Source: Escherichia coli
GTDB lineage: Bacteria; Pseudomonadota; Gammaproteobacteria; Enterobacterales; Enterobacteriaceae
Reading direction: 5' to 3' (one strand)
Assembly: GCF_003334785.1 (NCBI RefSeq)
Contig: NZ_QOWV01000009.1
DNA length: 64,000 nucleotides
Under the pieces are notes generated by a model. That model did not search any database and was not told where the DNA came from. It saw only the letters and a list, made by a program, of their open reading frames with translations. Made by a program: the position numbers and the translations under genes. How positions within the stretch are numbered: position 1 is the stretch's first letter; each line of letters begins with the position of its first letter. Below, one piece after another: positions 10,863-11,210 of the stretch.

Positions 10863-11210
10863 TCACTTCTTCTTGTTCATCATCGCTTTCAGGTCAGCGA
10901 ATGGGTTGTACTTCGCTTCACCGACATCTTTCTGCGCATCTTCCCCTGCGATAACGGTCGTACCATACTGATCCGCTTCGGTATATTTCGAATGCTCATG
11001 ATCGTGGCAATAGAGACACAACAATTCCCAGTTACTGCCATCTTCCGGGTTATTGGTATGGTCGTGATCAATGTGGTGAACGGTAAGTTCACGCAGGTTG
11101 GAATAAACAAACTCGCGGGAACAGCGACCGCAGACCCACGGATAGATTTTTAATGCTTTTTCGCGATAGCCGCTTTCTAACCGCGCATAGTTTTTTGGGA
11201 TGATAGCCAT
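10863..11210 (-). CDS. yajD: HNH nuclease-family protein YajD
   Basis: 115-aa ORF with Cys/His cluster CGRCSREF...HHIDHDHTNN...CLYCHDHEH typical of HNH/zinc-finger nucleases. Confidence 0.88.
   Translation of the reverse strand: MAIIPKNYARLESGYREKALKIYPWVCGRCSREFVYSNLRELTVHHIDHDHTNNPEDGSNWELLCLYCHDHEHSKYTEADQYGTTVIAGEDAQKDVGEAKYNPFADLKAMMNKKK

Follow-up and report, generated by a model that had tools for sequence, protein, structure and literature searches.

YajD of Escherichia coli is a conserved single-copy zinc-ribbon HNH protein with a complete predicted active site and a C-terminal peptide motif that spans phyla

We analysed a 64,000-nucleotide stretch of Escherichia coli DNA (contig NZ_QOWV01000009.1 of assembly GCF_003334785.1), referred to below as the window, which carries the gene yajD. 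Judged from its sequence and from characterized analogues, YajD would be a weak, non-sequence-specific, metal-dependent nicking nuclease that is recruited by its tail to a conserved partner, likely on damaged or branched DNA. We assign this reading a probability of about 0.5. The gene family had already been annotated and named before this analysis. New here are the incidental nature of the position next to secDF, the status of yajD as a core gene that carries a conserved expression cassette of its own, the prediction of H46 as the essential histidine, and a C-terminal motif that spans phyla.

The yajD gene and its product

The protein and its parts map to the window as follows.

10863..11210, minus strand: yajD coding sequence, 115 codons plus TGA stop (open reading frame listing, identity to MG1655, NF008448)
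11145..11192, minus strand: N-terminal basic helix, residues 7-22 (AlphaFold2 models, conservation tally and isoelectric point)
10983..11132, minus strand: zinc-ribbon HNH (ββα-Me) core, residues 27-76
10917..10982, minus strand: variable acidic linker, residues 77-98 (alignment variability, AlphaFold2 and isoelectric point)
10866..10916, minus strand: conserved C-terminal peptide, residues 99-115, A-T/K-x-N-P-F-A-D-L-K-x-M-M-x-K-K-K

The reading frame starts with ATG and encodes a protein of 115 amino acids (MAIIPKNYARLESGYREKALKIYPWVCGRCSREFVYSNLRELTVHHIDHDHTNNPEDGSNWELLCLYCHDHEHSKYTEADQYGTTVIAGEDAQKDVGEAKYNPFADLKAMMNKKK). A first-pass annotation of this DNA had described a HNH-family reading frame of only 115 residues; the listed frame has this length, and the quoted motifs (VCGRCSREF, HHIDHDHTNN and CLYCHDHEH) were found exactly. 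Over 1.2 kb around the gene the DNA is 100% identical to that of E. coli K-12 MG1655, for which the RefSeq annotation reads secF, yajD ('HNH nuclease YajD') and tsx. Against the NCBIfam model NF008448 ('YajD family HNH nuclease') the protein scores 210.3 bits at a cut-off of 87, over residues 2-113 of the protein and a model of 113 positions. It is therefore a full-length, above-cut-off member of this equivalog family, which corresponds to the UniProt name 'Putative HNH nuclease YajD'. The UniProt and AlphaFold database (AFDB) entries carry this same name, and every AFDB neighbour is called YajD. The Pfam HNH domain PF01844 was matched with E = 1.5e-12 (residues 27-75, model positions 1-47 of 47), and the Pfam search found no further domain.

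Residues and fold of the HNH core

Conservation was tallied over 344 distinct YajD relatives, which were collected from two large protein searches and aligned. The cysteines C27, C30, C65 and C68 are each kept in 323-331 of the 344 relatives. Similar values were obtained for H45 (341), H46 (340), N54 (341), D57 (342), G58 (341), N60 (340), W61 (340) and H69 (325), followed by E72 and H73 with 319 each. In the N-terminal helix Y15, R16 and L20 are nearly invariant. The claim of the first-pass annotation that the Cys/His core is complete is borne out by these counts, with key residues each kept in 323-340 of the relatives.

Two AlphaFold2 models of YajD were obtained, from 20 and 146 sequences. 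In both of them the core is confidently modelled (pLDDT ~90), with β1 at residues 42-46, β2 at 61-65 and a long helix at 66-82; shorter N-terminal helices span residues 7-12 and 15-22. H46 lies at the end of β1, N60 just ahead of β2 and H69 at the start of the helix. The predicted structure thus has the ββα-metal fold of the HNH superfamily, and the catalytic histidine, the structural asparagine and the metal-binding His/Asn are present and conserved. The pairs C27-x2-C30 and C65-x2-C68, situated ahead of β1 and at the β2/α junction, place YajD in the zinc-ribbon subclass of HNH proteins.

Based on alignment and models, H46 is the predicted general base and N60 the predicted structural asparagine bracing the hairpin. 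H69 is predicted to bind a divalent metal together with H45 and H73, in a canonical one-metal HNH site, and the four cysteines are the predicted ligands of a structural CCCC zinc site. An alignment with T4 endonuclease VII pairs D40-H41 of that enzyme with D48-H49 of YajD, which made H49 a candidate for the general base. This candidate was rejected, since H49 is replaced by Gly in 21 and by Asn in 3 members; the role was assigned to H46 because H49 varies, whereas H46 is almost always kept and ends β1. The predicted zinc-ribbon HNH active site is complete and conserved. Catalytic residues missing on alignment, which the first-pass annotation had named as the observation that would speak against its proposal, were therefore not found in the 344 relatives.

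The loop between β1 and β2 (residues 47-62, window positions 11025-11072) reads [IKR]-D-H-[DN]-H-x-N-N-P-x-D-G-S-N-W-E and is nearly invariant across phyla. Conservation of this loop goes far beyond the needs of a generic HNH hairpin, which suggests a surface for recognition of a substrate or partner, or a second metal site.

The charge of YajD is unevenly distributed. Segment 1-26 has a pI of 9.7, the whole E. coli protein is acidic (pI 6.1) and the core carries a charge of -4.7; the N-terminal helix and the tail are the only basic parts. Such an acidic core is unusual for a nuclease that binds DNA unaided.

Comparison with characterized nucleases

The predicted fold of YajD is that of a ββα-Me nuclease. 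In a fold comparison the model scored highest against the HNH domain of ZRANB3 (7.6), followed by the HNH protein of phage GVE2 (6.9), DotN (6.8), McrA (6.5) and the HNH domains of Cas9 and Cap5 (~6). Lower scores were obtained for Gmet_0936 (5.5) and T4 endonuclease VII (4.0). Active nucleases make up most of the top structural matches.

The HNH domain of human ZRANB3 (PDB 5MKW) shares 19% sequence identity with YajD. Its residues D1020, H1021, N1036 and H1045 are needed for cleavage (PMC5481773). The distances between H1021, N1036 and H1045 are 15 and 9 positions, compared to 14 and 9 for the His-Asn-His series of YajD. ZRANB3 differs in that its HNH is one domain of a 1079-residue SNF2 ATPase, needs ATP hydrolysis and has a specific helical insert. 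It also carries a C-terminal APIM clamp motif, whereas the tail of YajD matches neither APIM nor PIP.

The closest characterized analogue is Gmet_0936 of Geobacter metallireducens (Gme HNH, PDB 4H9D), a stand-alone zinc-ribbon HNH protein. Its identity to YajD is only ~18%, and although it is in the PDB it was not detected by phmmer or by the profile of the YajD family. According to the abstract of the study, DNA binding by Gmet_0936 is weak, and so is its nicking activity, which depends on Mn2+ and favours DNA containing AP sites; the protein is by itself not a Holliday-junction resolvase, and a function in repair was proposed (PMC3765158). The catalytic set of Gmet_0936 is D53/H54/N68/N77 (HNN type), compared to H45-H46/N60/H69 in YajD. 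The same abstract mentions no counterpart of the PFAxL tail, which is a feature of YajD.

T4 endonuclease VII (PDB 1EN7/1E7D) was the only solved nuclease found by sequence (E = 0.008). Both proteins are zinc-ribbon HNH/HNN folds and share the H-x-D-H-D-H cluster and the second CxxC; the [CxxC]2 arrangement as a whole is common to YajD, ZRANB3, Gmet_0936 and endonuclease VII. YajD shows neither a significant match to the profile of the endonuclease VII family (PF02945) nor the helical dimerization domain that clamps four-way junctions. In EcoKMcrA, the GVE2 HNH protein, Cap5, the HNH domains of Cas9/IscB and ZorE, a specificity module is fused to the nuclease or encoded next to it (modified-DNA reader, terminase, SAVED sensor, guide RNA and ZorABC). 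YajD is without any such module; it also differs from these nucleases in being a fixed core gene that was not found in the phage collections searched.

One alternative is that YajD is a catalytically silent adaptor or metal-binding protein of HNH fold. As in DotN, a HNH-like subunit of the Dot/Icm coupling complex, the His/Asp-rich loop (HHxDHDH) and the zinc ribbon would then be used for contacts between proteins or for handling of metal and not to cleave phosphodiesters. We consider this unlikely. H45, H46 and N60 are kept in ~99% and H69 in ~95% of the members, a pattern that would be unexpected had catalysis been lost, and the predominance of active nucleases among the best structural matches argues in the same direction.

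A conserved peptide at the C-terminus

The core is followed by an acidic linker (pI 4.05) with low model confidence (pLDDT 44-67). Residues 77-82 of the linker still belong to the long helix, and disorder is predicted from residue 83 onwards. Beyond the linker the sequence becomes conserved again. The family form of the tail is A-T-x-N-P-F-A-[DN]-L-K-x-[ML]-[ML]-x-K-K, or PFAxLKxLLKK in short. P103 is kept in 306, F104 in 275, A105 in 268 and L107 in 289 of the 344 relatives. The curated set of 146 sequences shows little or no variation at these four positions, with P103, F104 and L107 invariant. The motif persists in members from Betaproteobacteria, Nitrospira, Hydrogenedentota and Metallibacterium at 40-60% identity. 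This peptide is an addition to the description given in the first-pass annotation.

In the AlphaFold2 models the tail is predicted to form a short amphipathic helix (residues 107-113) with a basic end. It is not confidently packed on the core in either model, even with the deeper alignment (pLDDT about 62-68). A conserved terminal peptide that is joined to a folded domain by a flexible linker is the usual layout of a tethered docking motif, and the tail of YajD looks like such a motif that would tether the protein to a partner. To our knowledge, the tail is unlike the bacterial β-clamp motif QL[SD]LF, the SSB-type C-terminus and other clamp-binding motifs.

One specific form of this idea is that PFAxLKxLLKK docks on a universal hub of replication or repair (for example the sliding clamp, RecA, RuvB or RecQ-associated machinery) and brings HNH nicking to stalled forks or damage. 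We regard this as a long shot.

Proposed function of YajD

How could a nuclease of this kind act? YajD on its own would probably show weak, non-sequence-specific nicking with Mn2+ or Mg2+, similar to Gmet_0936. Weak and non-specific activity is expected because the core is acidic and a DNA-recognition domain is lacking. Specificity would probably arise because the linker and the C-terminal peptide attach the nuclease to a conserved partner or surface within the cell, so that targeting as well as safety of YajD would come from recruitment by the tail. Nucleases with clamp-binding tails, such as ZRANB3 with its HNH domain and APIM motif, provide a precedent for this design. The most likely substrate would be damaged or branched chromosomal DNA, and YajD may serve as a back-up in repair or under replication stress.

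No functional study of yajD and no biochemistry on YajD was found in the literature searched. The statement of the first-pass annotation that the protein has no obvious role agrees with this. In Salmonella, the subject of the one study of yajD mutants that was found, the ΔyajD mutant behaved as wild type in growth, stress survival and mouse infection, and the cbpA/yajD and ychN/yajD double mutants were sensitive to H2O2 (PMC3878590). A back-up role fits the absence of a single-mutant phenotype; at the same time, a single deletion without growth, stress or virulence defect is an argument against the proposed function. The sensitivity of the double mutants is a weak hint in favour of a repair role.

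A second weak hint comes from the neighbourhood of yajD in distant lineages, where DNA-repair genes were found at three loci (L093 3049-9793; L095 2858-5414; L100 4764-5234). In Metallibacterium, recQ is the divergent neighbour of yajD and ligA lies three genes off. In Hydrogenedentota the order ruvA-ruvB-orf118-yajD is co-directional and a photolyase gene is close by; orf118 did not match any NCBIfam family, and NCBIfam scans of other unannotated genes near yajD at distant loci gave no informative match. At the third locus a PolX-like HhH fragment is encoded two genes from yajD. These neighbourhoods are anecdotal. Of the ~12 contexts outside the enterobacteria, only 3 include repair genes, none of which recurs, and no LexA box was seen on reading the sequence upstream of yajD; both observations count against a repair nuclease. 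The acidic core could also mean that DNA is not the substrate.

A further point against action on DNA comes from a network study by Hu et al. 2009, which lists yajD as a non-essential orphan (PMC2672614) and places it in the 'translation' orphan set, COG J (PMC2672614 Table S18). In the supplements of that study, yajD appears in small predicted modules, namely pncA-yajD and a cluster of eight mostly uncharacterized genes. YajD might accordingly target RNA or the translation apparatus, e.g. as a nuclease associated with RNA or with the ribosome, on which the C-terminal basic helix would dock. Conservation of yajD as strong as that of housekeeping genes and the basic stretch at the end of the tail are in line with such a role. 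We nevertheless hold it to be quite unlikely. The assignment is a network prediction, and the drug colony sizes recorded for yajD are noisy and not distinctive (PMC2672614), so that the network placement is a weak lead only. No translation gene recurs beside yajD in the loci surveyed. We also know of hardly any characterized HNH enzyme that is not a DNase.

Conservation, distribution and mobility

yajD is a strictly maintained single-copy core gene of E. coli that behaves like a housekeeping gene, present once in 5425 of 5426 complete genomes and at one fixed chromosomal site. The first-pass annotation had called the protein conserved, and this holds well beyond the species. Compared to Salmonella the protein is 97% and the DNA 83% identical, with only 57% identity at the third positions of conserved codons. 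At third codon positions every other genus, the syntenic Salmonella included, shares ~50-60% identity with E. coli. The GC3 of yajD tracks that of the host and ranges between 35% (Proteus) and 71% (Enterobacter). Proteins of Vibrio, Shewanella and Pseudomonas are 64-80% identical to E. coli YajD. Phylogenetic distribution, which the first-pass annotation had suggested as a check, covers Beta- and Gammaproteobacteria, Nitrospira, Hydrogenedentota and Magnetococcus. The family comprises 640 representatives at 50% identity (E <= 1e-3) and >8000 clusters at 90% identity. As judged by these sequence comparisons, yajD is a real gene under strong purifying selection.

In Pantoea, yajD was found on plasmids of 130-180 kb, e.g. 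pPag1 of Pantoea vagans, with 61 Pantoea plasmid records in total. The plasmid-encoded protein is 94% identical to that of E. coli, and its gene (locus L081) lies between genes for RND efflux and for a 2-phosphosulfolactate phosphatase. Several PLSDB entries for E. coli and Salmonella that are labelled 'plasmid' are 1-5 Mb in size, thus chromosome-sized, and appear to be mislabelled chromosomes; one Salmonella record that was inspected had chromosomal gene order.

Recent horizontal mobility was considered in view of the variable sites and the high-identity proteins of Hafnia and Proteus. It was rejected on the grounds of nearly saturated synonymous sites and a GC3 in line with that of the host. 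These data bear on the possibility that YajD is a selfish or conflict nuclease, i.e. a free-standing homing endonuclease, a toxin or an anti-phage remnant. Domain-level similarity would fit: the HNH domain of ZorE was matched with 4e-7, by residues 22-76 of YajD against positions 213-269 of a 282-position model and thus in the HNH domain only, and phage HNH PHROGs match YajD down to 6e-12. The chromosomal site also varies by genus, and the Pantoea copy resides on large plasmids. However, this reading is largely refuted and very improbable. Besides the single copy at one site in E. coli and the lack of recent transfer, yajD had no match at E <= 1e-8 in 50,697 GenBank phage records and just two remote HNH relatives in 2.9 million viral contigs. 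Neither the DNA-recognition module nor the phage, intron or intein location of homing endonucleases was found. A search for toxin/immunity and anti-phage systems (PADLOC; colicin-type, ZorE and others) did not identify YajD as a member. In addition, the extreme conservation of the protein is unlike that of fast-evolving conflict genes.

Two metagenomic fusion candidates were rejected as well. P0194 (560 residues) consists of a complete YajD followed by a BNR-repeat protein and is probably a read-through or assembly artefact, not Rosetta-stone evidence. P0128 (190 residues) combines a YcaQ-like N-terminal piece with YajD, is probably an artefact too and was not used as fusion evidence. The join in P0128 falls in a 'WDRERAL' stretch common to both parts; YcaQ belongs to a family of crosslink-repair glycosylases.

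Genomic neighbourhood and expression signals

The context of yajD was surveyed at 80 loci in genomes of Enterobacterales, Vibrionales, Alteromonadales and one Pseudomonas; with about 14 additional contexts for which annotation was available, the survey covers ~95 loci. A crude clustering of neighbours gave 53 context groups for the 80 loci, which is an upper bound because ORF calling was simple; the Enterobacterales subset gave 28 groups for 44 loci. The groups follow genera. In Enterobacter asburiae, yajD lies with paaY, paaX and paaK, in Kosakonia with an esterase gene and a cold-shock gene, and in ~12 more distant lineages the neighbours are unrelated in each. A recurrent neighbour of yajD was not found among the 80 loci and ~14 further contexts. 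Likewise, no immunity, Zor, restriction, terminase or mobile-element gene was identified as a partner, neither in the window nor at the ~95 other loci, in agreement with the solitary gene of the first-pass annotation.

The elements that flank the coding sequence are listed below.

11216..11224, minus strand: Shine-Dalgarno region CCAGGTAAC, a copy of the conserved ACAGGTAAyA block (15-genus upstream alignment)
11246..11255, minus strand: degenerate -10-like box TTGGGAAACT of a putative promoter, counterpart of TGGGATATAwT elsewhere (upstream alignment)
11290..11319, minus strand: intrinsic terminator of secF (yajC-secDF operon), a 13-pair stem followed by a T-run, TTTTTTTT (terminator scan)
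10750..10847, minus strand: two REP-type hairpins in the yajD 3' UTR, at 10823-10847 and 10750-10779 (RNA fold)
10693..10719, no strand assigned: hairpin common to the convergent tsx and yajD genes (terminator scan on the plus strand for tsx; the same 12-pair hairpin in the yajD transcript)

Alignment of 15 genera revealed that ~60 nt upstream of yajD are conserved although the flanks differ. This cassette (TGGGATATAwT plus ACAGGTAAyA) accompanies yajD into unrelated contexts in different genera. A scan for consensus sigma-70 promoters found none upstream of yajD at its threshold, and a -35 element or regulator site was not identified in the cassette; the promoter is putative, inferred from cross-genus conservation only. 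Because its own upstream segment is conserved despite changing flanks, yajD is predicted to be a monocistronic, self-contained expression unit.

Downstream of the gene, the 186-nt REP/terminator stretch folds far better than shuffled sequences (z = -7.0). The palindromes at 10750-10779 and 10823-10847 form a BIME-like cluster ahead of the hairpin at 10693-10719, which is probably a bidirectional terminator for tsx and yajD. Rfam gave nothing above threshold in this region; two REP-derived families, naRNA4 and ES036, were matched below it. An intrinsic terminator that lies downstream of yajD was confirmed in vitro, in a paper that gives no coordinates (PMC12207403), and a NusG-suppressed transcription pause maps within yajD (PMC10268239). 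In Salmonella enterica an annotated Ldr-family type I toxin gene is located between yajD and tsx (L082 7786-7893), in the exact place of the REP elements of E. coli.

The first-pass annotation had placed yajD directly downstream of secDF, after the terminator of the Sec operon. Both statements describe the window correctly, with the secF hairpin at 11319..11290 between secF and yajD, but the position itself carries no functional meaning. Among the 80 loci, yajD has secD and secF at its side in just three genera, Escherichia, Phytobacter and Kluyvera; Salmonella has the same order in a separate record, a chromosome fragment mislabelled as plasmid. Because it is limited to these four genera, the adjacency is an accident of lineage. 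A link of YajD to protein export, as might be expected from a gene that follows yajC-secD-secF and lies beside secF on the same strand in all four, is refuted by this context: across the 28 neighbourhoods of the 44 Enterobacterales loci secDF appears only in the Escherichia/Kluyvera/Phytobacter group, a strong intrinsic terminator splits secF from yajD, yajD has its own conserved segment with putative promoter and Shine-Dalgarno region, and the YajD sequence contains no obvious signal peptide or membrane span.

Implications

yajD is a member of the E. coli 'y-ome', present in essentially every genome of the species and without an assigned role. A potentially genome-cutting enzyme that is under strong selection and has no inhibitor or partner gene implies tight control, exerted through recruitment or through a low activity of the enzyme itself. 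With its conserved tail, YajD offers a concrete experimental handle on its function. If its partner is not a replication or repair hub, yajD stays an ordinary annotated orphan. Docking on such a hub, if true, would make YajD a bacterial counterpart of the HNH-plus-clamp-motif module of ZRANB3 and its tail a new bacterial short linear motif, and would bring a new component as well as a new docking motif into bacterial genome maintenance.
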